Part shown: in pieces, positions 1-64,000 of the stretch | Position numbering within the stretch: position 1 is the stretch's first letter | How the letters are laid out: the number at the start of each line of letters is the position of its first letter | Source: Amphiscolops sp. MND2022 | Lineage: Eukaryota | DNA length: 64,000 nucleotides | Assembly (NCBI GenBank): GCA_964187785.1 | Contig: OZ076409.1 | Location: forward strand, 70,744,001-70,808,000 | Reading direction: 5' to 3' | Made by a program: the position numbers and the translations under genes | Notes under the pieces: model-generated | What the model saw: only the letters and a program-made list of their open reading frames with translations | What the model was told of the DNA's origin: nothing | The model's database searches: none

Positions 1-404
1 TCAAGTGTGTTTTTGAGTATGTTTGTATTACTTTAGAATCAATTAGAGCTTCAAGAAAAGTTTGCCAACGACAAAAACTATGTCGTGATGATTCCGTTAT
101 TAGAATGATAGTTAACAAAAGGTTGATAAAGTTGATTTTTTACATTTCAAATGTGTCCCAAATGCCAGCAAACCTCTTTACCAAACAAATGGTATTGATT
201 GGATTGTATATAACAGCTAATAAAAGTTCAAATTGAATATTACGTTTCATTATGGAAGCTGAAACGTCAAATTATAGTTTAATTAACGTCAACGCCACAT
301 ACTTTACATCAACGCCCACCGTCCGTAGGCATGCCGAGGCATGCCTTTCGACGACGTATACCAAATTCCACCCACACAACACCCTCGAGCGCGGTAGCAG
401 CTAG
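1..404 (+). repeat. Family A unit, partial (3' end)
   Basis: Matches the last ~400 bp of A units such as 11193-11596 and ends in GCAGCTAG. Confidence 0.93.
289..357 (+). promoter_or_regulatory. Universal right-arm core: 2x TCAACGCC + 20-bp palindrome + TTCGACGACGT (putative protein-binding or origin/termination signal; representative of 36 copies)
   Basis: TCAACGCC at 289 and 309, and AGGCATGCC-GA-GGCATGCCT at 327-346. Conserved in all families. The function is inferred. Confidence 0.6.
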
Positions 405-407
405 GTG
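401..407 (+). other. Invariant junction/crossover core CTAGGTG (representative of 36)
   Basis: It is the only sequence shared by all A/A, A/B, B/A, B/B, A/C and C/A junctions (GCTAGGTG in 35, CCTAGGTG at 62900-62907). Confidence 0.9.
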
Positions 408-437
408 CGGGGGGGTAACCCCTACAAAGATATTGGA

Positions 438-461
438 GGATTCGGGTAGGGTCCTGAATCC
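438..461 (+). other. Left-arm hairpin with AGGG-containing loop (representative)
   Basis: GGATTCGGG-TAGGGT-CCTGAATCC. Equivalent stems with different sequence occur in all families. Confidence 0.8.
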
Positions 462-1935
462 GAGTTCAGTGCTGCCAGCTATCGTTAGGGATTTTAGAAA
501 ATTTTGCCGATCTCGTGATCTAACCGTAGGATTTTAAAGTTGGAGCGGCCCCCACCAGATTTTCCAAAGTTATTCGCCCCCCACCGGGTTCCAGCGTGAT
601 TGAAATATTTTGACGGGGTACACGGGCGACCGTTAGGGGTCATTTTGGGGGTAAAATTTATATCCGGTCGCATAACTTTTTTCCTGTTGGTTTAAAACTT
701 TGGGACCCTGCTAAAAGTTTCTTGACCGTGTTGCAGTGGCTCCGGAGGTCCAAACCAAATTTTTCTATCTTGAAGCTATCTCCAAGTACCCCCCCGCCCA
801 AACCGTTATTTTTCCGGAAACGCAGGTTTTTGACCCGGAAGGAGTCGTCTGAGCGCGGGGTCGTTAGGTGATGTATTGGGGACGGCCTTGAGACGAAGCG
901 GGGGACATGTAGTTTGCCGACCCCTGTTTACCCCCCGGACGGGAAATGACCGTTATTTGAGCGGGAAAAATGCCCCCCTCCACGTTTTACCGCTATTTCC
1001 GGTGTGAAGGAGTGGGAGTAGCGCGTCGGGTGTTATATAACAAAAGTAGGTTTAGACAAGGACCTATCGGAAATATGTAGTTTGGGACCCCCTGGACCAA
1101 CCCGTTAGCGGGAAATGGGGCTTCCGCCTCCTTTTTTTACTGCTAAAACCGTAAAATGGGCATTGAGGGGTAAATATCTCGTGAACGCGTGGAGCAATCG
1201 TGTCCATCACTACTACAAGGTTTCATACCCATGATATGGTGCCTTCAGGGGGGCAAACAGATTTCCGCTATCTATCACCGTTACCGACTTGGCCCCCCAG
1301 CCTAACCGCTATGTGACCGGAAATGTCACTTTTTGAGCCCAAAGGGTCGGTCCCAGCCGGGGAACGTTAGGTAACTTATTGTAGTACTCAATGAGACGAG
1401 TTGGGGGATGTAGTTTCAGTCACCCCCCGTTACCCCTTGGGACCGGAAATGACCGTTATGTGGGTAAAATTGCAATTTTTATACTTTTTCAAGTGTATTT
1501 AGGTGCTGAAGGAGTGGTAATAGGTGCTTGGACACTATATGATGTAATGGAGGTCGTGAGGAGAGCATTCGGAAATAACCGTTATGTTGACCCCAAAGTC
1601 CCCCTGGTACCGTTAACGACCGGAAATGGCCAAATTTTGTGTCTATTGGGTATAAATGTTTGGTATTTTATGGATAAAAGTACCTGGAAGGTGTTTTAAA
1701 GGCCTCCAGAAGTGAACATAGTCATGAAACCTTGTGGGGGGTAACGGTATATAGCACCGGAAGTCCAAACCGTTGGTCACAGAATAGGTTTTTTGGTTTC
1801 AAAATGTCTTTAGGCATAGTTTTGTGGGTTGAATCGTCATAATATCAACTAATACGGACTTTTTTCGGAAATAAAATTTTTTCACATTAGTTTCAGGGAC
1901 CTCCAATGCTTCAGTCAACATAACCGTTACATTTT

Positions 1936-1979
1936 GATAGCCTTTCAAGTTGACCTGGTGTCAACTTGGAAGGGCTATC
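1936..1979 (+). other. 44-bp bulged hairpin of A units (representative)
   Basis: GATAGCCTTT-CAAGTTGAC-CTGGT-GTCAACTTG-G-AAGGGCTATC, one per complete A unit. Confidence 0.85.
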
Positions 1980-2394
1980 CTTCTAAAATCGTTAATCAAG
2001 AGTGTTTTTGGGTAGGTATATGTTGCATTAGTACCAATTAGAGCTTCATCAACAGTTTGCCAACGGCAAGAACGATGTCGTGATAATTCCGTTATGAAAA
2101 TATTAGTTAACAAATTGTTTTCAAAGTTGATTTTTTCCATTAAAAATGTGTCCTAATGCCACCAAATTGAATAAAATAATAAATGGTATTGACTAAAACT
2201 AAATAACAATGAAAAAGAAGATCAACATTTTTATTAGGTCTCACAAAGCTGAAACCTCACGTTTTAGTTTAATTAACGTCAACGCCACATACTTTACATC
2301 AACGCCCACCGTCTGTGGGCATGCCGAGGCATGCCCTTCGACGACGTATACCAAACAATCTCCATATCTACACCCTAACCGCGGTAGCAGCTAG

Positions 2395-3704
2395 GTGCCG
2401 GGATTTCTATTCGATAAAGTATGTGGCGCGTGTGGGTAGGGTCCCTGGCGCGCTCTTGGGTATGGTGTTCACCAGCTAGGAAATAGGGGTCGATTTTTCG
2501 GGATCTCGTAAACTAGCCACACGATTTGGCTGAAATTTGGCACACGTACTCCCCTCGGCACGGTGAAGATGATTTCCTACTGACGTTTTTCCCGCAAAAT
2601 TTTTTTTGTTGTCCAAAATAACGGTTTTTGGGGTAAAATTTTGAATTTTTTTTAAATTTTATCTTATATCTCGCCACCGGTTTAGGCTAGCGCTTCAAAA
2701 CCCTGCTAAAGAAAGCTTGCAAACTGTCTCAGGAATGCGGTGTGAAATTTTCAGCTCAATCGGACTTAAACTCGGGGAGATATAGCGTTTTTCCGGAGCG
2801 GGGGGGTTTCATTTTTCTAACGGTCCAGCTTATCTTAGCCATTTTTTCGAAAATGTACTCGCCTAAAGACCTCCCCTGGCCGGTTTTATTCCCAGCAAAA
2901 CCATTTGGCCCTAAATACGGAGTTTCAGCGTTCCAGCATTCCCGGGCGAAAAGTTGTGGGACTTAGAAAAATTCAAAAATTTTCAAAAAAAATTTTTTCC
3001 GTTTTCCGCCCTCCCCCCCTAGGGGAAAAGACCCCCCAACCAGTAATTTGAGTGAATTCATGTGGAAAGGCCATGTTTAGACGAAAAAATTGCCGTTTAG
3101 AACGTCTTTATATCTCAACCTGAACTTGACTTATGAAGCTTTAAAGGTGATGTTTGGACGTGTGAAGCATGTAAAAAAAGGAATTTTTTTGATTTTATTT
3201 CATCAGAAAGTCATTGAATCACACGCTGTGAAGCCCAGAGCGTGGTTTCTAATAGTTTGGTATCGTTTAAACGCATTTTGGTGTCTTTTTACTCTGTTCA
3301 AAAACTTTTCTCCTGAAAATTAATGAATTTTGATTACTTTTCTTACTTTCCATTAATTTTTTTTTTATATTTTTACTTGAAACAGTTGAGTACATTCCAT
3401 CTCCCTTCCCGGGGGAGATGAGAATGTACTCGCAAAAAGCCGCGAACTACGGCCCATACCTTCCCGAGATACGCAGTATAAAGATAACATAATGGTCCAG
3501 ACATTTTAATGGAGTTGTATCTTGGTAATATGTCTGGATTTGCAGAAAAATCAGCACGTGCCATTTTATACCAAGTTGCTCGCAACGACAATTAATTTAA
3601 ATCAACGCCCCCCACAAAAATCAACGCCCCCCGTCCGTGGGCATGCCGAGGCATGCCCTTCGACGACGTGCACCAAAATATGCCCCGAGCGCGTTAGCAG
3701 CTAG
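2395..3704 (+). repeat. Family B unit, subtype B1 (1310 bp)
   Basis: Starts GTGCCGGGATTTC and its interior is unlike A. It is similar to 61618-62904 and 57062-58335 and carries the same right-arm core. Confidence 0.92.
3388..3431 (+). other. 44-bp bulged hairpin of B units (representative)
   Basis: GAGTACATTC-CATCTCCCT-TCCCG-GGGGAGATG-A-GAATGTACTC, one per B unit. Confidence 0.85.
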
Positions 3705-6700
3705 GTGCGGGGGGGAAACCCCTTCCCTTATCTTGGAGGATTCGGGTAGGGTCCTGAATCCGAGTTCAGTGCCGCCAGCTCTCAGTAGAAATCTGGGCAT
3801 TTTTTTGCGATCTCGTGATCTAACCATAGGATTTTAAAGTTGGAGCGGCCCCCACCAGATTTTCCAAAGTTATTCGCCCCCCACCGGGTTCCAGCGTGAT
3901 TGAAATATTTTGACGGGGTACACGGGCGACCGTTAGGGGTCATTTTAGGGGTAAAATTTATATAATGTCGCATAACTTTTTTCCTGTTGGATTAAAACTT
4001 TGGGACTCTGCTAAAAGTTTCTTGACCGTGTTGCAGGGGCCCCGGATTTCCAAACCAAATTTTTCTATCTTGAAGCTATCTCCAAGTACCCCCCCGCTCA
4101 AACCGTTATTTTTCCGGAAACGCCGGTTTTTGACCCGGAAGGAGTCGTCTGAGCGCGGGGTCGTTAGGTGATGTATTGGGGACGGCCTTGAGACGAAGCG
4201 GGGGATATATAGTTTGCCGACCCCAGTTCACCCCCCGCACGGGAAATGACCGTTATATGAGCGGGAAAAATGCCCCCCTCCACGTTTTACCGCTATTTCC
4301 GGTGTGAAGGAGTGGGAGTAGCGCGTCGGGTGTTATATAACAAAAGTAGGTTTAGACAAGGACCTATCGGAAACATGTAGTTTGGGACCCCCTGGACCAA
4401 CCCGTTAGCGGGAAATGGGGCTTCCGCCTCCTTTTTTTACTGCTAAAACCGTAAAATGGGCATTGAGGGGTAAATATCTCGTGAACGCGTGGAGCATCGT
4501 GTCCATCACTACTACAAGGTTTCATACCCATGATATGGTGCCTTCAGGGGGGCAAACAGATTTCCGCTATCTATCACCGTTACCGACTTGGCCCCCCAGC
4601 CTAACCGCTATGTGACCGGAAATGTCACTTTTTGAGCCTAAAGGGTCGGTCCCAGCCGGGGAACGTTAGGTAACTTATTGTAGTACTCAATGAGACGAGT
4701 AGGGGGATACAGTTTCAGTCACCCCCCGTTACCCCTTGGGACCGGAAATGACCGTTATGTGGGTAAAATTGCGATTTTTGTACTTTTTGAAGGGCAATTA
4801 GGTGCGGAAGGAGTGGTAATAGGTGCTTGGACACTATTTGAGGTAAGGGAGGACGTGAGGCGAGCATTCGGAAATAACCGTTATGTTGACCCCAAAGTCC
4901 CCCTGGTACCGTAAACGACCGGAAATGGTCAAATTTTGTGTCTATTGAGTACAAATGTTTGGTGTTTTATGAATAAAAGTACCTATTAGGTGTTTCGACG
5001 GTCTGCAGTAGTGAACATAGTCATGAAACCTTACGGGGGGTAACGGTATATAGCACCGGAAGTCCAAACCGTTGGAGACAGGATAGGTTTTTTGGTTTGA
5101 AAATGTCTTTCGGCGTACTTTTGTTGACTATTATGGACTATTTTGAAAAATTAAAGTTTTTCCATATAGTTTCAGAGACTCCGAAACCTCAACCAACATA
5201 ACCGTTACCTTATGATAGCCTTTCAAGTTGGCCTGGTGTCAACTTGGAGGGGCTATCCTTCAAAAATCGTTAATCAAGTGTGTTTTTGGGTATGTTTGTA
5301 TCAATTTAGAATCAATTAGAGCTTCAAGAAAAGTTTGCCAACGACAAAAACTATGTCGTGATGTTTCCGTTATTAGAATAGTAGTTAACAAACTGTTGAT
5401 AAAGTTGATTTTTTACATTTCGAATGTGTCCTAAAAGCCAGAAAACCTCTTTAACAAACAAATGGTATTGATTGAATAGTATATAACAGGTAATAAAAGT
5501 TCAAATTGGTTATTACGTTTCATTATTGAAGCTAAAACTTCATAACATAGTTTTATTAACGTCAACGCCACATACTTTACATCAACGCCCACCGTCTGTG
5601 GGCATGCCGAGGCATGCCCTTCGACGACGTATACCAAAAACATACCTAACGACGCCCGTACATCCCGGGCTAGGTGCGGGGGGGAAACCCCAACAAAATT
5701 TTTGGAGGATTCGGGTAGGGTCCTGAATCCGAGTTCAGTGCTGCCAGCTTTCGTTAAGAAAATTTGGATAGGATTCGGGATCTCGTGATCTAACCATAGG
5801 ATTTTAAAGTTGGAGCGGCCCCCACCAGATTTTCCGAAAATTAGCGCCCCCCACCGGGTTCCATACCCCGGAAAATTTTTTTCTGGCCACACGGGCGACC
5901 GTTAGGGGGTCATTTTAGGGGTAAAATTCATATTGGGCCACATAACTTTTTTTCTGTTGATTTAAAACTTTGGGACCCTGCTAAAAGTTTCTTGACCGTG
6001 TTGCAGGGGCCCCGGAGGTCTAAACCAAATTTTTCTATCTTGAAGCTATCTCCAAGTACCCCCCCGCCCAAAACGCTATTTTTCCGGAAACGCAGGTTTT
6101 TGACCCGGAAGGAGTCGTCTGAGCGCGGGGTCGTTAGGTGATGTATTGGGGACGGCCTTGAGACGAAGTGGGGGACATGCAGTTTGCCAACCCCAGTTTA
6201 CCCCCCGGACGGGAAGTGACCGTTATATGAGCGGGAAAAATGCCCCCCTCCACGTTTTACCGCTATTTCCGGTGTGAAGGAGTGGGAGTAGCGCGTCGGG
6301 TGCCATATATCAAAAGTAGGTTTAAACAAGGACCTATCGGAAACATGTGGTTTGGGACCCCCTGGACCAACCCGTTAGCGGGAAATGGGGCTTCCGCCTC
6401 CTTTTTTTACGGTTAAAAACGGAAAATGGGCATTGAGGGGTAAATATCTCGTGAACGCGTGGAGCTACGGTGTCCTTCACTACTACAAGGTTTCATACCC
6501 ATGATATGGTGCCTTCAGGGGGGCAAACAGATTTCCGCTATCTATCACCGTTACGGACTTGGCCCCCCAGCCTAACCGTTAAGTGACCGGAAATGTCATA
6601 TTTTGAGCCCAAAGGGTCGGTCTCAGCCAGGGAACGTTAGGTAACTTATTGTAGTACTCATTGAGACGAGTTGGGGGACATAGTTTCAGTCACCCCCCGT

Positions 6701-9700
6701 TACCCCTTAGGACCGGAAATGACCGTTATGTGAGTAAAATTGCCATTTTTGTCCTATTTGAAGGGCATTTATATGCGGAAGGAGTGGTAATAGGTGCTTG
6801 GACACTATATTAGGTAAGGGAGGACGTAAGGCAAGCATTCGGACATAACCGTTATGTTGACCCTAAAGTCCCCCTGGTACCGTAAACGACCGGAAATGGT
6901 CAAATTTTGTGTCTATTGGGTACAAATGTTTGGTATTTTGTAAATAAAAGTATCTATTAGGTGTTTCGACGGTTTGCAGTAGTGAACATAGTCATGAAAC
7001 CTTGTGGGGGGTAACGGTATATAGCACCGGAAATCCGAACCCTTGGAGACAGGATAGGTTTTTTGGTTTTAAAATGTCTTTCGGCGTAGTTTTGTCAACT
7101 ATTATGGACTATTTTTAAAAATTAAAGTTTTTCCATATAGTTTCAGCGACTCCGAAACCTCAACCAACATAACCGTTACCTTATGATAGCCTTTCAAGTT
7201 GGCCTGGTGTCAACTTGGAAGGGCTATCCTTCAAAAATCGTTAATCAAGTGTGTTTTTGGGTATGTTTTTATCATTTTAGAATCAATCAAAGCTCCAAGA
7301 AAAGTTTGCCAACGACAAAAACTATGTCGTGATGATTCCGTTATTAGAATGATGGTTAACAAAATGTTGATAAAGTTGATTTTTTACATTTCAAATGTGT
7401 CCTAAAAGCCAGAAAACCTCTTTACCAAAAAAATGGTATTGATTGAATTGTATATAACAGGTAATAAAAGTTCAAATTGATTATTACGTTTCATTATTCA
7501 AGCTAAAACTTCATAACATAGTTTAATTAACGTCAACGCCACACACTTTACATCAACGCACACCGTCTGTGGGCATGCCGAGGCATGCCCTTCGACGACG
7601 TATACCAAATACATACCCAAACGACGCCCGTACATCCCGGGCTAGGTGCGGGGGGGAAACCCCAACAAAATTTTTGGAGGATTCGGGTAGGGTCCTGAAT
7701 CCGAGTTCAGTGCTGCCAGCTTTCGTTAAGAAAATTTGGATAGGATTCGGGATCTCGTGATCTAACCATAGGATTTTAAAGTTGGAGCGGCCCCCACCAG
7801 ATTTTCCGAAAATTAGCGCCCCCCACCGGGTTCCATACCCCGGAAAATTTTTTTCTGGCCACACGGGCGACCGTTAGGGGGTCATTTTAGGGGTAAAATT
7901 CATATTGGGCCACATAACTTTTTTTCTGTTGATTTAAAACTTTGGGACCCTGCTAAAAGTTTCTTGACCGTGTTGCAGGGGCCCCGGAGGTCCAAACCAA
8001 CTTTTTCTATCTCGAAGCTATCTCCAAGTACCCCCCCGCCCAAAACGTTATTTTTCCGGAAACGCAGGTTTTTGACCCGGAAGGAGTCGTCTGAGCGCGG
8101 GGTCGTTAGGTGATGTATTGGGGACGGCCTTGAGACAAAGCGGGGGATATATAGTTTGCCGACCCCAGTTTACCCCCCGCACGGGAAATGACCGTTATAT
8201 GAGCGGGAAAAATGCCCCCCTCCACGTTTTACCGCTATTTCCGGTGTGAAGGAGTGGGAGTAGCGCGTCGGGTGTTATATAAAAAAAGTAGGTTTAGACA
8301 AAGACCTTTCGGAAACATGTAGTTTGGGACCCCCTGGACCAACCCGTTAGCGGGAAATGGGGCTTCCGCCTCCTTTTTTTACTGCTAAAACCGTAAAATG
8401 GGCATTGAGGGGTAAATATCTCGTGAACGCGTGGAGCAATCGTGTCCATCACTACTACAAGGTTTCATACCCATGATATGGTGCCTTCAGGGGGGCAAAC
8501 AGATTTCCGCTATCTATCACCGTTACCGACTTGGCCCCCCAGCCTAACCGCTATGTGACCGGAAATGTCACTTTTTGAGCCCAAAGGGTCGGTCCCAGCC
8601 GGGGAACGTTAGGTAACTTATTGTAGTACTCAATGAGACGAGTTGGGGGATATAGTTTCAGTCACCCCCCGTTACCCCTTGGGACCGGAAATGACCGTTA
8701 TGTGGGTAAAATTGCTATTTTTATACTTTTTGAAGGGCATTTAGGTGCGGAAGGAGTGGTAATAGGTGCTTGGACACTATATGATGTAAGGGAGGATATG
8801 AGGCGAGCATTCGGAAATAACCGTTATGCTGACCCTAAAGTCCCCCTGGTACCGTAAACGACCGGAAATGGTCAAATTTTGTGTTTATATGGTACAAATG
8901 TTTGGTATTTTGTAGATAAAAGTATCTATTAGGTGTTTCGACGGTCTGCAGTAGTGAACATACTCATGAAACCTTGTGGGGGGTAACGGTATATAGCACC
9001 GGAAGTCCAACCCGTTGGAGTCAGGATAGGCTTTTTGGTTTTAAAATGTCTTTCGGCGTACTTTTGTCGACTATTATGGACAATTTTTAAAAATTAAAGT
9101 TTTTCCATATCGTTTCAGAGACTCCCGGAAACCTCAACCAACATAACCGTTACCTTATGATAGCCTTTCAAGTTGGCCTGGTGTCAACTTGGAAGGGCTA
9201 TCCTTCAAAAATCGTTTATCAAGTGTGTTTTTGGGTATGTTTGTATCATTTTAGGACCAATTAGAGCTTCAAGAAAAGTTTGCCAACGACAAAAACTATG
9301 TGGTGATGATTCCGTTATTAGAATAATAGTTAACAAAATGTTGATAAAGTTGATTTTTTACATTTCAAATATGTCCTAAAAGCCAGAAAACCTCTTTACC
9401 AAACAAATGATATTGATTGAATTGTATATAATAGGTAATAAAAGTTCAAATTGATTATTACGTTTCATTATGGAAGCTAAAACTTCATAACATAGTTTAA
9501 TTAACGTCAACGCCACAAACTTTTTATCAACGCCCACCGTCTGTGGGCATGCCGAGGCATGCCCTTCGACGACGTATACCAATTTCCTTCCCAATCTACA
9601 CCCACCCGCGGTAGCAGCTAGGTGCGGGGGGGTAACCCCAACAAAATTTTTGGAGGATTCGGGTAGGGTCCTGAATCCGAGTTCAGTGCTGCCAGCTTTC

Positions 9701-50700: not shown

Positions 50701-51709
50701 TCAATGAGACGAGTTGGGGGATATAGTTTCAGTCAACCCCCGTTACACCTTGGGACCGGAAATGACCGTTATGTGGGTAAATTTGCAATTTTTATACTCT
50801 TTGAAGTGTATTTAGGTGCGGAAGGAGTGGTAATAGGTGCTTGGACACTATATGATGTAATGGAGGTCGTGAGGAGAGCATTCGGAAATAACCGTTATGT
50901 TGACCCCAAAGTCCAACCGGTACCGTTAACGACCGGAAATGGCCAAATTTTGTGTCTATTGGGTACAAATGTTTGGTATTTTATGGACAAAAGTACCTGG
51001 AAGGTGTTTTAAAGGCCTCCAGAAGTGAACATAGTCATGAAACCTTGTGGGGGGTAACGGTATATAGCACCGGAAGTCCAAACTGTTGGTCACAGAATAG
51101 GTTTTTTGGTTTCAAAATGTCTTTAGGCATAGTTTTGTGGGTTGAATCGTCATAATATCAACTAATACGGACTTTTTTCGGAAATAAAATTTTTTCACAT
51201 TAGTTTCAGGGACCTCCAATGCTTCAGTCAACATAACCGTTACATTTTGATAGCCTTTCAAGTTGACCTGGTGTCAACTTGGAAGGGCTATCCTTCTAAA
51301 ATCGTTAATCAAGAGTGTTTTTGGGTAGGTATATGTTGCATTAGTACCAATTAGAGCTTCATCAACAGTTTGCCAACGGCAAAAACGATGTCGTGATAAT
51401 TCCGTTATAAAAATATTAGTTAACAAATTGTTTTCAAAGTTGATTTTTTCCATTAAAAATGTGTCCTAATGCCACCAAATTGAATAAAATAATAAATGGT
51501 ATTGACTAAAGTAAATAACAATGAAAAAGAAGATCAACATTTTTATTAGGTCTCATTATGGAAGCTGAAACCTCACGTTTTAGTTTAATTAACGTCAACG
51601 CCACATACTTTACATCAACGCCCACCGTCTGTGGGCATGCCGAGGCATGCCCTTCGACGACGTATACCAAACAACCTCCATATCTACACCCACCCGCGGT
51701 AGCAGCTAG
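41768..51709 (+). repeat. Run of 5 family A units (1990, 1993, 1993, 1974, 1992 bp)
   Basis: Junctions at 43757, 45750, 47743, 49717 and 51709. Confidence 0.95.
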
Positions 51710-53098
51710 GTGGTTGGGGCGGTCCCCAGAACGCACAAGGAGGCGCGGGGAGGGTCCTGCGCCGACGTAGAATAATTTCATATAATACTAGTATCCTACA
51801 TGGGTGTTTTAGAGGCGATTTTGGAATCTAACCGTAGGATTTGGATAATTTTTTGCATGCGGCCATAACTCGAAATTCCAAGAACTTTTCCCTACTGTCA
51901 TTTTCCCCGCAAATTGTTTTTTGTTGACTTATGGCCGAAAAACCGGAAATAACGTCCTTTTTAGACGTTATATCCGAAGTGTCGTCATAACTTTTTTCCA
52001 GGGCATGCTAGCGTTCTCGTTCACTTTTACACTTAGTTGCAGCATCTCAAAATACAACTGGTGGAAAATTTTGGTTGCATTCGGATCACCCCCCACCGAG
52101 ATAGAAGGGTTCCCCCCTCCAGTTTTACCCCCCAAATTTGCAAAATAGCCAATTTTGAGCATGAAGCCGAGGATTTAGCGTACCCGCACCCTCCTGATGT
52201 TTTGTTGTACGTATTGGGGTCAATCTGACGACATGTGTGGTTTTCACCCCCAACCCCCCCTTGGACCGGAAATGACACTTTTTTGTGTTTTTTGGCCGAA
52301 TTTAGCCGTTTTCATTATTAGGCAGTCGTTTTAGGGGCTCCTAGCAGGATATCGAAATTGAAATACAACCTGATCACAACCCAGTGACAACATGTTGGCC
52401 ACTTGGAGGTATCATCATGACCGGAAGTGCTGTCAACCCCCCTTTTTGTGACCGCTTTTTGACCTTGTGCACCAAAATGCCAACATCTTGAGGCCTAATG
52501 AGGCATTCAAATCTGTACAAAGATAAAATGTTAGACAACCGAAGTCCCGGAAGATCTTTAGCATATACCGGAAGTTACCCCCAATGACCGGAAGTTACCC
52601 AATGTGACCGGAAATGGTCCAAAAATTAATGTAAAGTTGAATTTTTCACTATTTCAAGACCACTTAATTGAAACTTTTCAATCTAAAAACTAGCGTACTG
52701 GCTTGTTTTGCTGAATTTATGGAAATTGATGAGCTCTATCGCCCCCGATAGCCTTCGAAGTTGACCTTGCGTCAACTTTGTAGGCTATCGATAAAGAAAA
52801 ATGAACAACAAAGTACATTGTTGCTCTCGTTTTTTTCCCGTTGTTTTTCCTCAAACATTCTTGAGACATATACATGGCCGTTAGTTGAAATCAATATTTA
52901 GCCCATGTTATAGCTGGAGCAGCGAAGCGTTACACAGACTAGTGTGGTTTTGAAATCACACTATTTAAATTAACAACTGACCGTCTTAGTCAACGCCACA
53001 CATTCATACCAACGCCCACCGTCTGTGGGCATGCCGAGGCATGCCCTTCGACGACGTATGACGAATCCACTCCAACGACACCCGCAGTCCTCAGCTAG
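51710..53098 (+). repeat. Family C unit (1389 bp), single copy in the window
   Basis: Starts GTGGTTGGGGCGG and its interior is unique. It retains the AGGG-loop hairpin, an A-like long hairpin (52746-52790) and the right-arm core. Confidence 0.9.
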
Positions 53099-56000
53099 GT
53101 GCGGGGGGGTAACCCCAACAAAAATTTTGGAGGATTCGGGTAGGGTCCTGAATCCGATTTTGACTCTAATAGCTATCGATAGGAAATCTTGCAAAAATTT
53201 CGGGATCTCGTGATCTAACCATAGGATTTTAAAGTTGGAGCGGCCCCCACCAGATTTTCCAAAATTGATCGCCCCCCACCGGGTTCCATACCCCGGAAAA
53301 TTTTTTTCTGGCCACACGGGCGACCGTTAGGGGGTCATTTTAGGGGTAAAATTCATATTGGGCCACATAACTTTTTTTCTGTTGATTTAAAACTTTGGAA
53401 CCCTGCTAAAAGTTTCTTGACCGTATTGCAAGGGCTCCGGAGGTCCAAACCAAATTTTTCTATCTTGAAGCTATCTCCAAGTACCCCCCCGCTCAAACCG
53501 TTATTTTTCCGGAAACGCAGGTTTTTGACCCGGAAGGAGTCGTCTGAGCGCGGGGTCGTTAGGTGATGTATTGGGGACGGCCTTGAGACGAAGTGGGGGA
53601 CATGTAGTTTGCCAACCTCAGTTTACCCCCCGGACGGGAAATGACCGTTATATGAGCGGCAAAAATGCCCCCCTCCACGTTTTACCGCTTTTTCCGGTGT
53701 GAAGGAGTGGGAGTAGCGCGTCGGGTGCCATTTATCAAAAGTAGGTTTAGACAAGGATCTATCAGAAACATGTGGTTTGGGACCCCCTGGACCAACCCGT
53801 TAGCAGGAAATGGGGCTTCCGGCCCGTTTTTTTACGGTTAAAAACGGAAAATGGGCATTGAGGGGTAAATATCTCTTGAACGCGTGGAGCTACGGTGTCT
53901 TTCACTACTACAAGGTTTCATACCCATGATATGGTGCGTTCAGGGGGGCAAACAGATTTCCGCTATCTATCACCGTTACGGACTTGGCCCCCCCAGCCTA
54001 ACCGCTAAGTGACCGGAAATGTCATATTTTGAGCCCAAAGGGTCGGTCCCAGCCAGGGAACGTTAGGTAACTTATTGTAGTACTCAATGAGACGAGTTGG
54101 GGGACATAGTTTCAGTCACCCCCCGTTACCCCTTGGGACCGGAAATGACCGTTATGTGAGTAAATTTGCCGTTTTTGTCCTACTTGAAGGGCATTTAGAT
54201 GCGGAATGAGTTGTAATAGGTGCTTGGACACTAAATGAAGGAAGGGAGGATATGAGGCGAGCATTCGGAAATAACCGTTATGTTGACCCTAAAGTCCCCC
54301 TGGTACCGTAAACGACCGGAAATGGTCAAATTTTCTGTTTATAGGGTACAAATGTTTGGTATTTTGTAGATAAAAGTATCTATTAGGTGTGTCGACGGTC
54401 TGCAGTAGTGAACATAGTCATGAAACCTTGTGGGGGGTAACGGTATATAGCACCGGAAGTCCAAACCGTTGGAGACAGGATAGGTTTTTTGGTTTTAAAA
54501 TGTCTTTCGGCGTACTTTTGTCGACTATTAAGGACTACTTTTAAAAAATTAAAGTTTTTTCATATAGTTTTGGAGACTCCGAAACCTCAACCAACATAAC
54601 CGTTACCTCATGATAGCCTTTCAAGTTGGCCTGGTGTCAACTTGGAAGGGCTATCCTTCAAAAATCGTCAATCAAGTATGTTTTTGGGTATGTTTGTATC
54701 ATTTTAGAATCAAATAGAGCTTCAAGAAAAGTTTGCCAACGACAAAAACTATGTCGTGATGATTCCGTTATTAGAATAATAGTTAGCAAATTGTTGAGAA
54801 AATTGATTTTTTCCATATAAAATGTGTCCTAAATGCCAGGAAACCTATTTAACTAACAAATGGTATTGATTGGAATGTATGTAACAGATTTATAAAAGTT
54901 CAAATTGAATATTACCTTTCAATATGGAAGCTGAAACGTAATATTTTAGTTTAATTAACGTCAACGCCACACACTTTACATCAACGCCCACCGTCTGTGG
55001 GCATGCCGAGGCATGCCCTTCGACGACGTATGGCAAATCCGTTCTAACGACGCCCGTATATCCCGGGCTAGGTGCGGGGGGGAAACCCCATCCCTTATCT
55101 TGGAGGATTCGGGTAGGGTCCTGAATCCGAGTTCAGTGCCGCCAGCTCTCAGTAGAAATCTGGGAAATTTTTTGCGATCTCGTGATCTAACCATAGGATT
55201 TTAAAGTTGGAGCGGCCCCCACCAGATTTTCCAAAGTTATTCGCCCCCCACCGGGTTCCAGCGTGATTGAAATATTCTGACGGGGTACACGGGCGACCGT
55301 TAGGGGTCATTTTGGGGGTAAAATTTATATCCGGTCGCATAACTTTTTTCCTGTTGGTTTAAAACTTTGGGACCCTGCTAAAAGTTTCTTGACCGTGTTG
55401 CGGGGGCTCCGGAGGTCCAAACCAAATTTTTCTATCTTGAAGCTATCTCCAAGTACCCCCCCGCCCAAACCGTTATTTTTCCGGAAACGCAGGTTTTTGA
55501 CCCGGAAGGAGTCGTCTGAGCGCGGGGTCGTTAGGTGATGTTTTGGGGACAGCCTTGAGACGAAGCGGGGGATAAATAGTTTGCCGACCCCAGTTTACCC
55601 CCCGCACGGGAAATGACCGTTATATGAGCGGGAAAAATGCCCCCCTCCACGTTTTACCGCTATTTCCGGTGTGAAGGAGTGGGAGTAGCGCGTCGGGTGT
55701 TATATAACAAAAGTAGGTTTAGACAAGGACCTATCGGAAACATGTAGTTTGGGACCCCCTGGACCAACCCGTTAGCGGGAAATGGGGCTTCGGCCTCCTT
55801 TTTTTACTGCTAAAACCGTAAAATGGGCATTGAGGGGTAAATATCTCGTGAACGCGTGGAGCAATCGTGTCCATCACTACTACAAGGTTTCATACCCATG
55901 ATATGGTGCCTTCAGGGGGGCAAACAGATTTCCGCTATCTATCACCGTTACCGACTTGGCCCCCCAGCCTAACCGCTATGTGACCGGAATTGTCACTTTT

Positions 56001-57061
56001 TGAGACCAAAGGGTCGGTCCCAGCCGGGGAACGTTAGGTAACTTATTGTAGTACTCAATGAGGCGAGTTGGGGGATATAGTTTCAGTCACCCCCCGTTAC
56101 CCCTTGGGACCGGAAATGACCGTTATGTGGGTAAAATTGCAATTTTTGTACTTTTTGAAGGGCATTTAGGTGCGGAAGGAGTGGTAATAGGTGCTTGGAC
56201 ACTATATGATGTAAGGCAGTTCGTGAGGCGAGCATTCGAAATTAACCGTTATGTTGACCCTAAAGTCCCCCTGGTACCGTAAACGACCGGAAATGGTCAA
56301 ATTTTGTATTTTTAGGGTACAAATGTTTGGTATTTTATGGAATAAAGTACATGGAAGGTGTTTCAAAGGCATCCAGAAATGAACATAGTCATGAAACCTT
56401 GAGGGGGGTAACGGTATATAACACCGGAAGTCCAAGCCGTTGGACACAGTATAGGTTTTTTGGTTTTAAAATGCTTATGAACGTACATTTGTGGGTTGAA
56501 TTGTTCTAATATTGACTTTTTTCGATATTTTTTGACATTAAAGGTTTTTCCAATAGTTTCAGGGACCTCCAAAGCTTCAATCAACATAACCTTTACATTG
56601 TGATAGCCTTTCAAGTTGGCCTGGTGTCAACTTGGAAGGGCTATCCTTCACAAATCGTATATCAAGTGTGTTTTTGAGTAGGTTTTTATCACTTTAGTAT
56701 CAATTAGAGCTTAATCATTAGTTTGCCAACGACAAAAACCATGTCGTGATGATTCCGTTAGTAGAAGAATAGTTAACAACTTGTTGACAAAGTTGATTTT
56801 TTGCATTTAAAATGTTTCCTAAATGCCAGGAAAACGATTTACGTTATAAATGGTACTGATTGACCCAAATAACAGTTAAATAAAGTTAAACATTATTTTT
56901 TCGTTTCATTATAGAAGCTGAAACCTCACGTTTTAACTTAATTAACGTCAACGCCACATACTTTACATCAACGCCCACCGTCTGTGGGCATGCCGAGGCA
57001 TGCCCTTCGACGACGTATACCAAAATCCAATATATCTACACCCGATTGCGGTAGCAGCTAG
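53099..57061 (+). repeat. Two family A units (1973 and 1990 bp)
   Basis: Junctions at 55071 and 57061. Confidence 0.95.
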
Positions 57062-58335
57062 GTGCCGGTGTTTTTTTACACAATGGGGGAAGTTGCGCGG
57101 TTGGGGAGGGTCCCTGACGCGCTTCCGTGGTATCGGGTCTTTCAACCGATGAAAACGACATAAAAAATTGGGATCTCGTAAACTAGCCATACGATTTGGC
57201 TGAAATTTGGCACACGTACCCCCCTCGGCACGGTGAAGATGATTCCCTACTGACGTTTTTCCCGCTAAACATTTTTTGTTGCCCAAAATAACGGTTTTTG
57301 GGGTAAAATTTTCAACTTTTTTTAAATTTCATCTTATATCTCGCCACGGGTACACGCTAGCGCTTCCAAACCTTGCTGACGAAAGTTTGCAAACTGTCTC
57401 AGGAATGCTGTGGGAAATTTTCAGTTCAATCGGACTTAAACTCGAGGAGATATAGCGTTTTTCCGGAGCGGGGGGGTTTCATTTTTCTAACGGTCCAGCT
57501 TATCTTTGCCATTTTTTCGAAAATGCACTCGCCTAAAGGCCTCCCCTGGCCGGTTTTATTCCCAGCAAAACCATTTGGCCCTAAATACGGAGTTTCAGCG
57601 TTCCAGCATTCCCGGGCGAAAAGTTGTGGGACTTAGAATTTTTCAAAAATTTTCAAAAATTTTTTTTTCCGTTATTTGGGCCCCCAAAGTGGGGGAAAAG
57701 ACCCCCCAACCAGTAAAGCAAGTGAATGCATGTGAAAAGCCCTTGTTTAGACGAGAAAAATGCCGTTTAGAACGTCTTTTTATCTTAACTTGACATTGAC
57801 TTTTGTCGTTTTGAAGGTGACCGTTAGATACAGAAAATTGATATATTGAGTATTTATCCCATCTGAAAGCCATTGAGATACAACATGTTTTGCTCAAAAC
57901 GTGTTTCATTGCAGTTCCGCTGTCCATTGACACCCTTTGATGTCTTTTGACGTAATTTTCTTTTCTATAATAACAATTTTTTTGTGTATTTATTCATTTT
58001 TTTCTCATCAAATAACTTGAAACAGTTGAGTACATTCCATCTCCCTTCCCGGGGGAGATGAGAATGTACTCGCTAAAGGTCAGGAACTACGGTCTATATC
58101 TTCCACAACACAAAAGGGATTGCAAATGGTTTCAGTTTGTCGCAGAAAACTTCTTTTTGCCCTCTGTGACTCGACAAAATGAACGTTTCTTACTTACTTT
58201 GAAACTCAGCATACCACAACTCATCTCTAACGTCAGCGCCCCCCTACTTGCATCAACGCCCCCCGTCCGTGGGCATGCCGAGGCATGCCCTTCGACGACG
58301 TATACCAAGATATACATAAGCGCGGTAGCCGCTAG
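57062..58335 (+). repeat. Family B unit, B1-related with distinct ends (1274 bp)
   Basis: The body (~57170-57790) is near-identical to the matching part of 61618-62904. The first ~105 bp and last ~250 bp are different. Confidence 0.9.
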
Positions 58336-60328
58336 GTGCGGGGGGGAAACCCCATCCCTTATCTTGGAGGATTCGGGTAGGGTCCTGAATCCGAGTTCAG
58401 TGCCGCCAGCTCTCAGTAGAAATCTGGGCATTTTTTTGCGATCTCGTGATCTAACCATAGGATTTTAAAGTTGGAGCGGCCCCCACCAGATTTTCCAAAG
58501 TTATTCGCCCCCCACCAGGTTCCAGCGTGATTGAAATATTTTGACGGGGTACACGGGCGACCGTTAGGGGTCATTTTGGGGGTAAAGTTTATATCCGGTC
58601 GCATAACTTTTTTCCTGTTGGATTAAAACTTTGGGACCCTGCTAAAAGTTTCTTGACCGTGTTGCGGGGGCTCCGGAGGTCCAAACCAAATTTTTCTATC
58701 TTTAAGCTATCTCCAAGTACCCCCCCGCCCAAACCGTTATTTTTCCGGAAACGCAGGTTTTTGACCCGGAAGGAGTCGTCAGAGCGCGGGGTCGTTAGGT
58801 GATGTATTGGGGACGGCCTTGAGACGAAGCGGGGGATATATAGTTTGCCGACCCCAGTTTTCCCCCCGGACGGGAAATGACCGTTATATGAGCGGGAAAA
58901 ATGCCCCCCTCCACGTTTTACCGCTATTTCCGGTGTGAAGGAGTGGGAGTAGCGCTTCGGGTGCCATATATCAAAAATAAGTTTAGACAAGGACCTATCG
59001 GAAACATGTAGTTTGGGACCCCCTGGACCAACCCGTTAGCGGGAAATGGGGCTTCCGCCTCCTTTTTTTACTGCTAAAACCATAAAATGGGCATTGAGGG
59101 GTAAATATCTCGTGAACGCGTGGAGCAATCGTGTCCATCACTACTACAAGGTTTCATACCCATGATATGGTGCCTTCAGGGGGGCAAACAGATTTCCGCT
59201 ATCTATCACCGTTACCGACTTGGCCCCCCAGCCTAACCGCTATGTGACCGGAAATGTCACTTTTTGAGCCCAAAGGGTCGGTCCCAGCCGGGGAACGTTA
59301 GGTAACTTATTGTAGTACTCAATGAGACGCGTTGGGGGATATAGTTTCAGTCAACCCCCGTTACCCCTTGGGACCGGAAATGACCGTTATGTGGGTAAAT
59401 TTGCAATTTTTATACTCTTTGAAGTGTATTTAGGTGCGGAAGGAGTGGTAATAGGTGCTTGGACACTATATGATGTAATGGAGGTCGTGAGGAGAGCATT
59501 CGGAAATAACCGTTATGTTGACCTCAAAGTCCCCCTGGTACCGTTAACGACCGGAAATGGCCAAATTTTGTGTCTATTGGGTACAAATGTTTGGTATTTT
59601 ATGGATAAAAGTACCTGGAAGGTGTTTTAAAGGCCTCCAGAAGTGAACATAGTCATGAAACCTTGTGGGGGGTAACGGTATATAGCACCGGAAGTCCAAA
59701 CCGTTGGTCACAGAATAGGTTTTTTGGTTTCAAAATGTCTTTAGGCATAGTTTTGTGGGTTGAATCGTCATAATATCAACTAATACGGACTTTTTTCGGA
59801 AATAAAATTTTTTCACATTAGTTTCAGGGACCTCCAATGCTTCAGTCAACATAACCGTTACATTTTGATAGCCTTTCAAGTTGACCTGGTGTCAACTTGG
59901 AAGGGCTATCCTTCTAAAATCGTTAATCAAGAGTGTTTTTGGGTAGGTATATGTTGCATTAGTACCAATTAGAGCTTCATCAACAGTTTGCCAACGGCAA
60001 AAACGATGTCGTGATAATTCCGTTATAAAAATATTAGTTAACAAATTGTTTTCAAAGTTGATTTTTTCCATTAAAAATGTGTCCTAATGCCACCAAATTG
60101 AATAAAATAATAAATGGTATTGACTAAAACTAAATAACAATGAAAAAGAAGATCAACATTTTTATTAGGTCTCATTATGGAAGCTGAAACCTCACGTTTT
60201 AGTTTAATTAACGTCAACGCCACATACTTTACATCAACGCCCACCGTCTGTGGGCATGCCGAGGCATGCCCTTCGACGACGTATACCAAACAACCTCCAT
60301 ATCTACACCCACCCGCGGTAGCAGCTAG
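58336..60328 (+). repeat. Family A unit (1993 bp)
   Basis: Near-identical to 45751-47743 and 49718-51709. Confidence 0.95.
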
Positions 60329-61617
60329 GTGGCCGGAAATTTTTTTTTTTCATCAAAATCTTTGCCATTGGGGGAGGGGCCCCGGATGGCCAGTAGTACG
60401 GGATAGCTTCCTACCAAATCCAGGCGGAAAAAACGTGATTTTGGAAACTAGCCGTCAGAATTTGCTCAAATTTTGCATACGGCTTCCTATAACAATCCTA
60501 AGAACTAATCCCTACTGGCATTTTGCCCAAAAAACGCAAAAAGTTGGTCAAAATCTTAGTTTTTTGGTCAAAAAATGGCGTTTTTTGGAAAAAAAAATTT
60601 TTCAGAGACAATTACTCGTAACTGGTTCACCCAGCGCAAAAACGCCTAGCTGATTTATTGTTGGGCACTTCATGAGGAGTGCGTATACAAATTTTCGTCC
60701 AGATCGGAAAAAAAATGACTAAGTATTAGCTGGAATTCGGACGCATTTTTTCGCAAATTTTTGAAAACCTAGTCTATCTCTGCCGTTTTTTGCCCAGATT
60801 TTTTTCCAGGTCCTCTCCTAAAGGCCTCCCCTGGCCGGTTTACTTCCCAGAAAAACCAATTGGCCCTAAATACGGAGTTTCAGCGTTCTAGCATTCCCGG
60901 GCGAAAAGATGTGGGACTTAGAAAAAATTCAAAATTTTTCAAAAAATTTTTTTTTCGTTTTCCGGCCCCCCAATGAAGAGGAACGACCCCCCAACGAGGA
61001 TTTTTGGTGAATTCACGTGGAAAGGCCTTGTTTTGTGGAACAAATTGCCGTTTAGAGCAACTTTTTATCTTAACTTGACGTTGACCTCTGTCGTTTTGAA
61101 TTTGATATTAGTATGTGTTGAGCATGTGAAAAGTTGATGATTTCAGTTGTTCTCTCGTGTTCAAGCCATTGAGATACAAGCGGTAGTGATCAAAATGTGA
61201 TTTATCGCAATTTGATGGTGTTTTTGGTGTATTTTGATTCTTTTAAATAAAAAGTTGTTCTTTATATATTTGGTGTAATGATTCAAATGAACAAGAAACA
61301 GTTGAGTACATTTCATCTCCCCCCTTGTGGGGGAGATGAGGATGTACCCGCTAAATGACACGCACAATGGCCCAATTTTATTTTTATGCGACATTTTCTA
61401 GGCTTTTGCGGAAGCCCACTAAAATTTAGACTGGTTTCCTTTTCTTTTACTCCAAAATTTTCCGTACTAACCACCTTACGCACCACCAGCTCAACGTAAC
61501 ATCTGTAACGTCAACGCCACACACTCTCACTAACGCCCACCGTCCGTGGGCATGCCGAGGCATGCCCTTCGACGACGTATGCCAAATAGCGCCACAGGGC
61601 GCAAACATTCCCGCTAG
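60329..61617 (+). repeat. Family B unit, highly divergent subtype B3 (1289 bp)
   Basis: The 5' ~480 bp are unique. It shares the B central block (60817-60919), a GAGTACATT-type hairpin (61304-61349) and the right-arm core. Confidence 0.88.
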
Positions 61618-62904
61618 GTGCCGGGATTTCCATTCGATAAGGAATTCTGCGCGTGTGGGTAGGGCCCCTGGCGCGCTCCTGTGTTTTCGGTTTTCCTACT
61701 CCTAAATAGACCCCCTGAATTCCGGGATCTCCTAAACTAGCCATACGATTTGGCTGAAATTTGGCACACGTACCCCCCTCGGCACGGTGAAGATGATTCC
61801 CTACTGACGTTTTTCCCGCTAAACATTTTTTGTTGACCAAAATAACGGTTTTTAGGGTAAAATTTTCAACTTTTTTTAAATTTCATCTTATATCTCGCCA
61901 CGGGTGCACGCTAGCGCTTCCAAACCTTGCTGACGAAAGTTTGCAAACTGTCTCAGGAAGGCTGTGTGAAATTTTCAGCTCAATCGGACTTAAACTCGAG
62001 GAGATATAGCGTTTTTCCGGAGCGGGGGGGTTTCATCTTTCTAACGGTCCAGCTTATCTTTGCCATTTTTTCGAAAATGCACTCGCCTAAAGGCCTCCCC
62101 TGGCCGGTTTTATTCCCAGCAAAACCATTTGGCCCTAAATACGGAGTTTCAGCGTTCCAGCATTCCCGGGCAAAAAGTTGTGGGACTTAGAAAATTTCAA
62201 AAATTTTCAAAATTTTTTTTTCCGTTATTTGGGCCCCCAAAGTGGGGGAAAAGACCCCCCAACCAGTAAAGCAAGTGAATGCATGTGCAAAGCCCTTGTT
62301 TAGAGGAGAAAAATGCCGTTTAGAACGTCTTTTTATCTTGGCTCAACGTTGACTTATGACGTTTTGAAGGTGATGTTTGGAGGTGTAAAGCACGTGAATA
62401 GTAAACGTTATGAGTATTTATCTGATCTGAAAGCCATTGAGATGCAATATGGTTTGCTCAAAACGTAATTCATTGCAGTTTGGCAATCAATCAACACCCT
62501 TTGTTGTCGTTTGACATACTTTTTTGTTGTTATAATAAAAAATTTTGTGTATTTATTCATTTTTTTCTCATCAAATAACTTGAAACAGTTGAGTACATTC
62601 CATCCCCCCCTTCCGGGGGAGATGAGAATGTACTCGCAAAAAGCACCGAACTACGGCCCTTACCTTCCCGAGCTACGCAGTATAGGGATTACATATTGGT
62701 TCCGACATTTTCATAGAGTTAAATCTTGGTAATCTGTCTGGATATGCAGAAAAATCAGCACGTGCCTTTTAATACCAAGTTGCTTACAACGACAATTATT
62801 TTATATCAACGCCCCCATATTTATCAACGCCCCCCGTCCGTGGGCATGCCGAGGCATGCCCTTCGACGACGTATACCAAGATATGCGTTAACGCGTTAGC
62901 CTAG
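61618..62904 (+). repeat. Family B unit, subtype B1 (1287 bp)
   Basis: Similar to 2395-3704 and ends GCCTAG with the shortest tail. Confidence 0.92.
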
Positions 62905-64000
62905 GTGCGGGGGGGTAACCCCAACAAATATATTGGAGGATTCGGTTAGGGTCCTGAATCCGATTTTAACTCTAATAGCTATCGATAGGAAATCGTGCAA
63001 AAATTTCGGGATCTCGTGATCTAACCATAGGATTTTAAAGTTGGAGCGGCCCCCACCAGATTTTCCAAAGTTATTCGCCCCCCACCGGGTTCCAGCGTGA
63101 TTGAAATATTTTGACGGGGTACACGGGCGACCGTTAGGGGTCATTTTGGGGGTAAAATTTATATCCGGTCGCATAACTTTTTTCCTGTTGGTTTAAAACT
63201 TTGGGACCCTGCTAAAAGTTTCTTGACCGTGTTGCAGTGGCTCCGGAGGTCCAAACCAAATTTTTCTATCTTGAAGCTATCTCCAAGTACCCCCCCGCTC
63301 AAACCGTTATTTTTCCGGAAACGCAGGTTTTTGACCCGGAAGGAGTCGTCTGAGCGCGTGGTCGTTAGGTGATGTTTTGGGGACGGCCTTGAGACGAAGT
63401 GGGGGACATGTAGTTTGCCAACCTCAGTTTACCCCCCGGACGGGAAATGACCGTTATATGAGCGGGAAAATTGCCCCCCTCCACGTTTAACCGCTATTTC
63501 CGGTGTGAAGGAGTGGGAGTAGCGCGTCGGGTGTCATATATCAAAAGTAGGTTTAGACAAGGACCTATCGGAAACATGTAGTTTGGGACCCCCTGGTCCA
63601 ACCCGTTAGCGAGAAATGGCGCTTCCGCCTCCTTTTTTTACTGCTAAAACCGTAAAATGGGCATTGAGGGGTAAATATCTCGTGAACGCGTGGAGCAATC
63701 GTGTCCATCACTACTACAAGGTTTCATACCCATGATATGGTGCCTTCAGGGGGGCAAACAGATTTCCGCTATCTATCACCGTTACCGACTTGGCCCCCCA
63801 GCCTAACCGCTATGTGACCGGAAATGTCACTTTTTGAGCCCAAAGGGTCGGTCCCAGCCGGGGAACGTTAGGAAACTTATTGTAGTACTCAATGAGACGA
63901 GTTGGGGGATATAGTTTCAGTCACCCCCCGTTACCCCTTGGGACCGGAAATGACCGTTATGTGGGTAAAATTGCAATTTTTATACTTTTTCAAGTGTATT
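62905..64000 (+). repeat. Family A unit, partial (5' 1096 bp)
   Basis: Near-identical to the start of 47744-49717. Confidence 0.93.

Follow-up and report, generated by a model that had tools for sequence, protein, structure and literature searches.

We analyzed a stretch of 64,000 nucleotides (nt) of the genome of Amphiscolops sp. MND2022 (G000; GenBank assembly GCA_964187785.1), located at positions 70,744,001-70,808,000 of contig OZ076409.1 (G000:C1:70,744,001-70,808,000). This whole stretch is referred to as the window, and window positions are counted from its first letter. The window is part of a co-oriented train of rolling-circle transposons of about six million bases, in which many unrelated families stand head to tail; over its full length (1..64000, + strand) it is a segment of a mixed-family array of Helitron-like units. 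We counted 36 copies of the heptamer CTAGGTG on the + strand and none on the - strand, against 3.8 expected from base composition, and all 36 junctions have a GGCATGCCGAGGCATGCC core 58-73 nt upstream (36 cores). The original prediction, made from the window alone, that 36 CTAG|GTG junctions share a single orientation is thus confirmed. At each junction (example at 401..407, +) one unit finishes and the following unit starts, and the joined sequence is, as argued below, also a preferred target.

The window contains 35 complete units: 25 of family A (1,969-1,994 bp), 9 of family B (1,268-1,310 bp) and 1 of family C (1,389 bp). No truncated unit is present, and the unit 3' end is CTAG at 36 of 36 window ends. 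Beyond a 3' core of ~60-90 bp the three families have little in common, and the B1, B2 and B3 subtypes are alike only in part. The nine pairings quoted earlier as examples of one right end preceding different left ends all read as stated, and in a table pooling the window with the loci fetched by then, one tail class precedes up to 8 head classes. Information content peaks at CT-G|GTG, letters that are part of the search pattern, and adjoining positions are much less conserved.

Read along the + strand, the window begins with the 3' end of an A unit terminating in CTAG (1..404), followed by an A unit (405..2394) and a B1 unit (2395..3704), both non-autonomous. Next come 16 A units whose neighbours are never identical (3705..35377), a run of five B2 units that are 84-98% alike (35378..41767), five A units (41768..51709), the C unit (51710..53098), two further A units (53099..57061) and a B1 unit (57062..58335). 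The A unit at 58336..60328 differs by ~1% from two units that do not adjoin it, those with starts at 45,751 and 49,718. A B3 unit (60329..61617), a B1 unit (61618..62904) and the 5' part of an A unit ended by the window edge (62905..64000) complete the stretch. The window encodes 12 open reading frames (ORFs) of at least 120 amino acids (aa), the longest of 175 aa. A Rfam scan of window positions 50,000-64,000 gave a single match far under the gathering score and thus no RNA family, and Tandem Repeats Finder (periods up to 500) found nothing relevant in the window. The A units show an internal periodicity of ~500 bp (nt ~386-570 versus ~890-1070, 69% alike), and this repeat is present in three to four copies in a 2.8-kb family and in an A-related coding unit.

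Both ends of the units have subterminal structure. An invariant palindrome, R-GGCATGCC-GA-GGCATGCC-Y, lies ~40-55 nt upstream of the 3' end (36 window copies; example at 327..346, +), and its flanking pair covaries: the pair closing the palindromic core is G-C in 28 and A-T in 8 of the 36 window copies, and among 172 distinct contexts it is G-C in 135 and A-T in 37, with zero mismatches. About 40 nt from the 5' end is a hairpin (example at 438..461, +) with a constant loop, (T/G)AGGG(T/C/A), and family-specific stems that differ among 21 arm classes. Cognate arms of this hairpin give -8.3 kcal/mol versus -5.6 kcal/mol for mismatched arms, and 0 of 10,000 permutations were as low. A hairpin in the last 40 nt is variable, with 12 of 27 tail classes beating shuffles at z < -1. 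The core (window 2317-2336 and others) also reads as two adjacent RRRCATGYYY-like decamers, close to the p53-family binding consensus with one mismatch; besides being a hairpin, it may act as a site for a host transcription factor.

Beyond the window, we sampled the array on the + strand from C1 70.456 to 75.40 Mb, with + units in samples at 70.456, 70.50, 70.54-70.72, 70.83-71.37, 72.2, 72.9, 73.7 and 75.4 Mb; these are point samples, between which continuity is unproved. Matches to the transposase Rep domain described below continue to 76.46 Mb, and C1 samples at 70.24, 70.44 and 76.52 Mb contained no units. Some opposite-strand insertions are present outside the window. One of them, at C1:76.095 Mb (L157), is an A unit that lies in reverse orientation at a CTCG within the large array.

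The 1.07-Gb genome contains 4,998 exact cores and many arrays on both strands. Many of these are separate arrays with the same mixed order, some of only about 8 units. In the fetched stretches we delimited 153 units, a few of which are merged units left unsplit by the search pattern; they represent 23 5'-body families, and the core is present in 122. At 73.68-73.74 Mb, a single family accounts for 24 units, which surround its own coding elements. In two clusters (C2:102.0-103.9 Mb and C3:2.5-3.7 Mb), the lower part has its Rep matches on the - strand and the upper part on the + strand, as back-to-back arrays of opposite polarity, and at C1:23,975,300-23,981,700 (L029) a short + array stands tail to tail with a - array. 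Canonical Helitrons resembling the Helitron-like element (HLE) groups HLE1 and HLE2 also occur in the genome (L162-L165), seemingly dispersed and outside these arrays. Contigs from one low-depth sequencing run fall in 13 of 30 bins without any of them spanning the stretch, which gives some room to the idea that the array is an assembly artefact. We consider this scarcely credible: the units differ by 1-20% in a non-repeating order, the same kind of array is found at several places and on both strands, and collapse or duplication errors cannot yield the ends verified by empty sites that are described below.

The train was first described as a series of non-coding cassettes, which holds within the window and fails for the train, as coding units lie 175 kb upstream and 209 kb downstream of it. 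An array at C1:24.0 Mb includes a unit of 13.7 kb that encodes a 2,377-aa frame with Helitron_like_N, PIF1 and GIY-YIG domains. Used as a query, the Rep of this frame has 129 matches in the genome, four of them at 100% identity on four contigs. The matches at C1 70.56-76.46 Mb are all on the + strand (35 of 35) and 31-88% alike to the query, and 28 of the 35 are in open frames of at least 2,200 aa. The Rep families, 31-100% alike, are interleaved and mostly intact.

Coding units of the same array share arms with the window families. The unit at C1:71,016,846-71,028,894 (12,049 bp) encodes a 2,349-aa RepHel, has the exact core and a CTAG end, and starts with a B1-type head, 72% alike over about 750 nt (nt 1-742 of the B1 unit at 2395..3704). 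The unit at C1:70,548,465-70,568,671 (~20.2 kb) encodes a 2,207-aa RepHel and a GIY-YIG ORF and has a GCGGTAGCAGCTAG end; its head is A-related (80% over 939 nt to the A unit at 405..2394) and 96% alike over 1,566 nt to the 2.8-kb family. Nucleotides 109-789 of B3 are 77% alike to the heads of other RepHel-coding units. The search for a long unit with the same arms encoding Rep and helicase, which the original prediction had recommended, was therefore successful, and its suggestion of a trans-acting enzyme that builds the array unit by unit, with HUH transposases as one candidate, is supported. The coding unit at C1:73,737,316 has two successive B-like 5' regions ~860 nt apart, possibly a truncated unit before the true head.

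The Rep motifs F-T-T, EFQ..N..H.H.L.W and Y282/Y286 are invariant in 8 of 8 family representatives, and motifs 1-3 can be aligned with those of the Helraiser transposase. In one transposase (P0001), Pfam detects Helitron_like_N (3.9e-10) and the Pif1 helicase PF05970 (7.7e-12). A Pif1 helicase is present in 17 of 19 relatives scanned, and the best Protein Data Bank sequence matches are Pif1 helicases. The predicted Rep model (predicted local distance difference test score, pLDDT, 85) matches the fold of Helraiser, 7LCC, with Z 14.2, a root-mean-square deviation of 3.8 and 221 aligned residues, the next row scoring 6.1; Foldseek places the same model at E 3.8e-5 to Helraiser, with no other match. 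GIY-YIG is found in 16 of 19 relatives scanned and in 29 of 37 long matches. Neither DUF6570 nor an AP endonuclease was detected in any of the 19 relatives at E 1e-3, or in P0001 at E 0.01. One transposase (P0035) contains an OTU domain. The coding frames thus encode a Rep of the two-tyrosine (Y2) HUH type together with a Pif1 helicase and with a GIY-YIG nuclease.

A second gene in the coding units is kept in distant relatives (HH probability 96% to L196 and 40% to L175). Its product is a candidate Cys-rich single-strand binder resembling the oligonucleotide/oligosaccharide-binding (OB) fold. We regard this as a lead only: the recognition score is low, the model has a pLDDT of 43, and no fold match was found for it at E 1e-3, although RPA/Teb1-type OB folds make up most of the top rows. 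In one group of coding units we also identified a SGNH/GDSL-hydrolase-like ORF (L031:5362-6027, - strand; L103:7173-7829).

Isolated copies reveal how the units insert, and the earlier suggestion to inspect the flanks of solo copies proved fruitful at two empty sites, both showing precise insertion at a mimic of the junction. The solo unit L034 lies at CTTG|GTG; two of four paralogs read CTTG|GTGAACC and the other two CTTA|GTGAACC, without duplication. Its left flank keeps the target CTTG and its right end keeps the element's CTGG, and 4 additional letters are present in the filled allele, about 8 nt farther upstream. For the solo unit L037 (C1:37.448 Mb), the empty site is CTTG|GTCC in 10 of 10 paralogs, again without duplication. 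This B2-type solo ends in CTTG and not in the usual B2 tail (L037:5850-5870), and the preceding stretch resembles the last 11 nt of the target; the 3' end is possibly target-templated. The empty-site evidence comes from these two loci, as the paralogs of a third solo unit (L027) end before the junction. Neither L034 nor L037 has a T|T target of the HLE2 type. Solo 3' ends are CTAG or CTGG, with one CTTG. CTNG precedes 8 of the 8 heads found at solo copies and array starts (9 were sought), although in two cases the flank may be the tail of a family not yet characterised; no head was found for solo L025.

Larger samples agree with this pattern. The left flank of 817 A heads is CTAG in 806 and CTGG, CTTG or CTCG in 9; the remaining 2 are truncated or nested heads at non-CTNG sites, so that the claimed absence of truncation applies to the window units and not to the units outside. 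At C1:71.099 Mb (L154), an A head lies behind an internal CTTG ~100 nt into another A unit. In one tail class, about 97% of the ends adjoin another unit's head. In the 34 copies of this class that have a non-GNG right flank, two of which share a flank, position +1 is G in 17, A in 13 and T in 4, and position +2 is T in 33 of 34; GTG(G/C) follows 1,281 copies of that class, a count that leaves aside GTG(A/T) and G(A/C/G)G. The empty sites, the left flanks of A heads and these non-array right flanks together establish, at the level of sequence, a genome-wide target CTNG|DT that is used without duplication or loss and mimics the elements' own junction. A precise switch at the 7-bp CTAGGTG, as originally proposed, describes the window; elsewhere the junction has the form CT(A/G)G|GTG, whereas isolated copies show CTNG|DT. 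According to existing descriptions, Helitrons enter A|T or T|T sites and show little specificity.

In a 46-kb sample of non-array DNA, the hexamer CTNGDT has a density of 4.8 per kb. Within 12 representative units, not all of them independent, we counted 87 internal sites against 144 expected on the + strand, and 145 against 155 expected on the - strand. The comparisons thus define the element as GTG ... CT(A/G)G, with predicted hairpins near both ends and with internal CTNG|DT avoided on what would be the transposed strand. Strand-specific depletion and covarying hairpins bear indirectly on a single-stranded or circular intermediate, which the elements may use.

Tyrosine recombinase chemistry also fits precise, duplication-free and oriented junctions with covarying hairpins, and an integron- or Crypton-like recombinase that stacks circular cassettes at the 7-bp core was offered as an alternative in the original prediction. 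It found no support here, and we judge it most improbable. RepHel is encoded in every long end-sharing coding unit examined, and Pfam detects no recombinase family among the ORFs of the sampled coding units, a search that was not made genome-wide. In addition, L034 keeps the target CTTG on the left and the element CTGG on the right, and the target site is depleted on one strand only, both as for a single-strand HUH enzyme.

The order and divergence of the units bear on how the array formed. Adjacent A units are never identical: their minimum divergence is 4.1%, so that no pair among 20 falls below 4%, and the divergence is 9.3% for adjacent and 10.1% for non-adjacent units. The closest A pairs (0.6-1%) are non-adjacent. 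That neighbours are never identical and not clearly closer than distant units argues against concatemers and recent tandem duplication. The A bodies are mosaics of one another, with the nearest neighbour changing from block to block. Tail class tracks the last 400 nt of the A body (12.4 versus 18.1% divergence) and does not track the first 500 nt (10.0 versus 9.5%), and a few tail types sit on unrelated bodies. Mosaic bodies and tails on unrelated bodies indicate that exchange also occurs away from the 7-bp core, and the claim that breakpoints are confined to this core is accordingly too strict. Together with the local family clusters, they suggest that homologous exchange contributes. We also considered whether units copy their tails from the neighbour upstream and rejected this, as the same tail class occurs in 3 of 20 adjacent pairs where 7.1 were expected.

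Multi-unit strands could have been copied as rolling-circle concatemers, or by bypass of a 3' end, and inserted in one event. The accessible text of PMC5148889 and PMC4778049 reports tandem Helitron insertions and circular intermediates, two identical units with a spacing of 3,071-3,072 bp are present at C1:24.011-24.017 Mb, and multi-unit transfer would account for shared local order. We nevertheless think this very unlikely as the origin of the array, since one circle gives identical neighbours and none of the 20 adjacent A-A pairs is under 4% divergent, and since bypass copies an existing mixed order and cannot create it.

Alternatively, the same elements may follow the CTNG|DT rule with no preference for junctions, with chance tandems amplified as a complex satellite by unequal crossing-over and gene conversion and with dispersed copies lost to selection. 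The block-wise switching of nearest neighbours in A bodies, the linkage of tail class to the last 400 nt and not to the first 500 nt of the body, and the local clustering of families are all as expected from such a process. However, satellite turnover homogenises and would break coding units of 12-20 kb. Against it stand neighbours that are never identical and closest pairs that are non-adjacent, the 23 families among 153 units, the interleaved and mostly intact Rep families, and the many separate arrays, some of ~8 units, with the same mixed order. We therefore regard this explanation as unlikely.

Given these analyses, we favour with good confidence the interpretation that the modules are non-autonomous, divergent Helitron-like elements mobilised in trans by coding elements of the same array, and that their insertion prefers existing junctions. 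By analogy with Helraiser and IS91 biochemistry, the Y2 Rep would nick 3' of CTNG, the helicase would peel off the + strand, and the ends would be joined into a circle closed at CTAG|GTG, which would then open again and be joined with a target that has been cleaved 3' of CTNG. Since target and circle junction have the same form, every array junction would be an ideal target. Insertion at a junction would leave two intact junctions and fix the orientation, and arrays may thus grow unit by unit from a mixed pool. With CTNGDT at a density of ~4.8 per kb in ordinary DNA, something more than the 6-nt rule is needed to account for the concentration of units. From their distribution and order we infer active targeting of existing ends; the transposase would probably be drawn to these ends by the shared palindrome and hairpins, perhaps with help from the fused GIY-YIG nuclease, and this is the least certain step. 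Homologous exchange between related units may then shuffle bodies and tails.

Several observations weigh against this interpretation. The A and B units are only 72-80% alike to their coding relatives, so that the exact mobilising family is not pinned down, and the C unit, compared with 7 coding units, matches none of them beyond about 100 nt and hence has no partner among them. Many tails show a weak 3' hairpin or none, the CTTG end of L037 that resembles its target is unexplained, and no CTNG was found upstream of the head motif in L196, a locus of a relative described below. GIY-YIG is missing or separate in some members: at C1:70,557,384-70,564,599 it is in a separate, slightly overlapping 204-aa frame (70.564 Mb), for which programmed frameshift, split gene and mutation are candidates. 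Mosaic A bodies and local clusters (the run of five B2 units and the 24-unit family) are also predicted by unequal exchange, and no insertion into a junction was observed directly.

In a profile search for relatives of the transposase, the number of representatives was 1,186 at E<=1e-3, 534 at 1e-10 and 195 at 1e-30, where representatives are clusters at 50% and some of the 534 may be other Helitrons. Styela clava is the only named host among the relatives. A single informative pair, L174 and L175, emerged from the 35 metagenome loci inspected for ends: the two share 99.8% identity starting at a boundary that reads CTAG|GTAGAA and CTGG|GTAGAA, and they lie in different flanks. L178 also starts with GTAGAA, and L196 and L197 carry the head motif GGGAGGGTCCC with no clear CTNG. 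No arrays were seen in the relatives' short metagenome contigs, and none of 51 pattern matches in viral contigs was confirmed. In one metagenome contig, a 134-bp inverted repeat pair lies just downstream of a relative's RepHel (L180:5781-12864), probably an unrelated insertion. In a Rep tree, a 100/99 branch separates 21 members of the lineage from one HLE1-like and three HLE2-like references; these references are few and all from G000, the HLE2 label of L163-L165 is inferred, and the tree has long branches and no outgroup.

We consider it an even question whether the elements represent a widespread, undescribed Rep-Pif1-GIY-YIG lineage with a conserved Cys-rich OB-like gene and IS91-like specificity. 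Such a lineage would actively home to the joined ends of its kin and build multi-megabase, strand-polarised safe havens that keep dozens of families (~30% protein identity) intact and possibly constitute a chromosome domain, for example a centromere. The lineage has a defined 6-nt target that equals its own end junction and links Helitrons to the behaviour of bacterial IS91. With a junction-like target, giant and ordered transposon arrays can arise in a simple way while host genes are spared, and the order of an array, as a record of insertion history, can be used to test self-targeting directly. The HUH transposase, with its programmable junction, is probably active, judging from its genes, and the many apparently intact coding copies provide a natural enzyme for biochemistry without reconstruction. 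The lineage is large and invisible to tools that seek TC...CTRR or terminal repeats.

Comparison with known systems indicates that the lineage is Helitron-like and lacks the ends and targets that define HLE1 and HLE2. Published systems are compared here as described in the accessible text of the cited sources. We found no account in the literature of the lineage, of a CTNG|DT target or of mixed megabase arrays, Repbase Reports, supplements and most subscription journals being outside the search. With HLE1 and Helraiser the lineage shares a Y2 HUH Rep-Pif1 fusion, a CT(A/G)G 3' end, the lack of target duplication, non-autonomous derivatives with common ends and, as a lead only, an OB-fold-like accessory gene. 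HLE1 elements have a 5' TC, a 3' CTRR with a short hairpin ~10 nt before it, and an A|T target (PMC11417382, PMC4778049), and Helraiser forms CTAG|TC circles and uses A|T targets (PMC4778049). In contrast, the lineage has a 5' GTG, a CTNG|DT target with a left flank ending in G at 815 of 817 A heads, and a C-terminal GIY-YIG nuclease, and its Rep profile matches Helraiser at E 0.13 versus 2e-120 for a canonical Helitron of the same genome.

HLE2 (Helitron2/Helentron) has in common with the lineage a transposase of 2,200-2,800 aa with added domains and hairpins near both ends. HLE2 elements are characterised by insertion between T and T(C), DUF6570 as a marker domain and short asymmetric terminal inverted repeats. 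One HLE2 family has captured a GIY-YIG and inserts at T|T sites, and at least four HLE clusters are unclassified (PMC11417382); the clusters left unclassified by HELIANO might contain members of the lineage. Unlike HLE2, the lineage has no T|T target, DUF6570 or AP endonuclease (in the 19 relatives and P0001 scanned as above), and it lies across the 100/99 branch from the three HLE2-like references. Replitrons have a one-tyrosine (Y1) Rep without helicase, whereas the lineage has Y2 plus Pif1.

The IS91 family (IS91, IS801 and IS1294) shares HUH Y2 rolling-circle chemistry, the lack of duplication and a tetranucleotide target resembling its own termination site, a functional likeness only. The IS91 transposase is a small, stand-alone Y2 enzyme without a fused helicase. 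The family is bacterial and helicase-free, whereas the lineage has a RepHel of 2,200-2,550 aa. IS91 uses the target CTTG and the termination site CTCG and, like the lineage, has subterminal palindromes at both ends; mixed-family arrays are not mentioned for it in the accessible text of PMC13181058, the source of these details.

A third, divergent HLE clade, described from Paramecium, likewise has a specific target and an absolute orientation bias, and its copies cluster in chromosome regions dedicated to them (PMC13085455). Their proposed insertion into telomeric CCC(C/A)AA, with repeats between copies (PMC13085455), differs from the lineage, whose flanks are other units or unrelated DNA, and the words GIY-YIG and CTAG are absent from the main text of that source. 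Tandem Helitrons and self-insertions are reported in plants and animals (PMC5148889), and Helitrons have been found in centromere arrays (bioRxiv 10.64898/2026.09.17.752431). Finally, the Drosophila telomeric elements HeT-A, TART and TAHRE form co-oriented, head-to-tail, mixed-family trains as well (PMC13534243), but they are retrotransposons of chromosome ends, whereas the units described here are interstitial DNA elements with exact ends.

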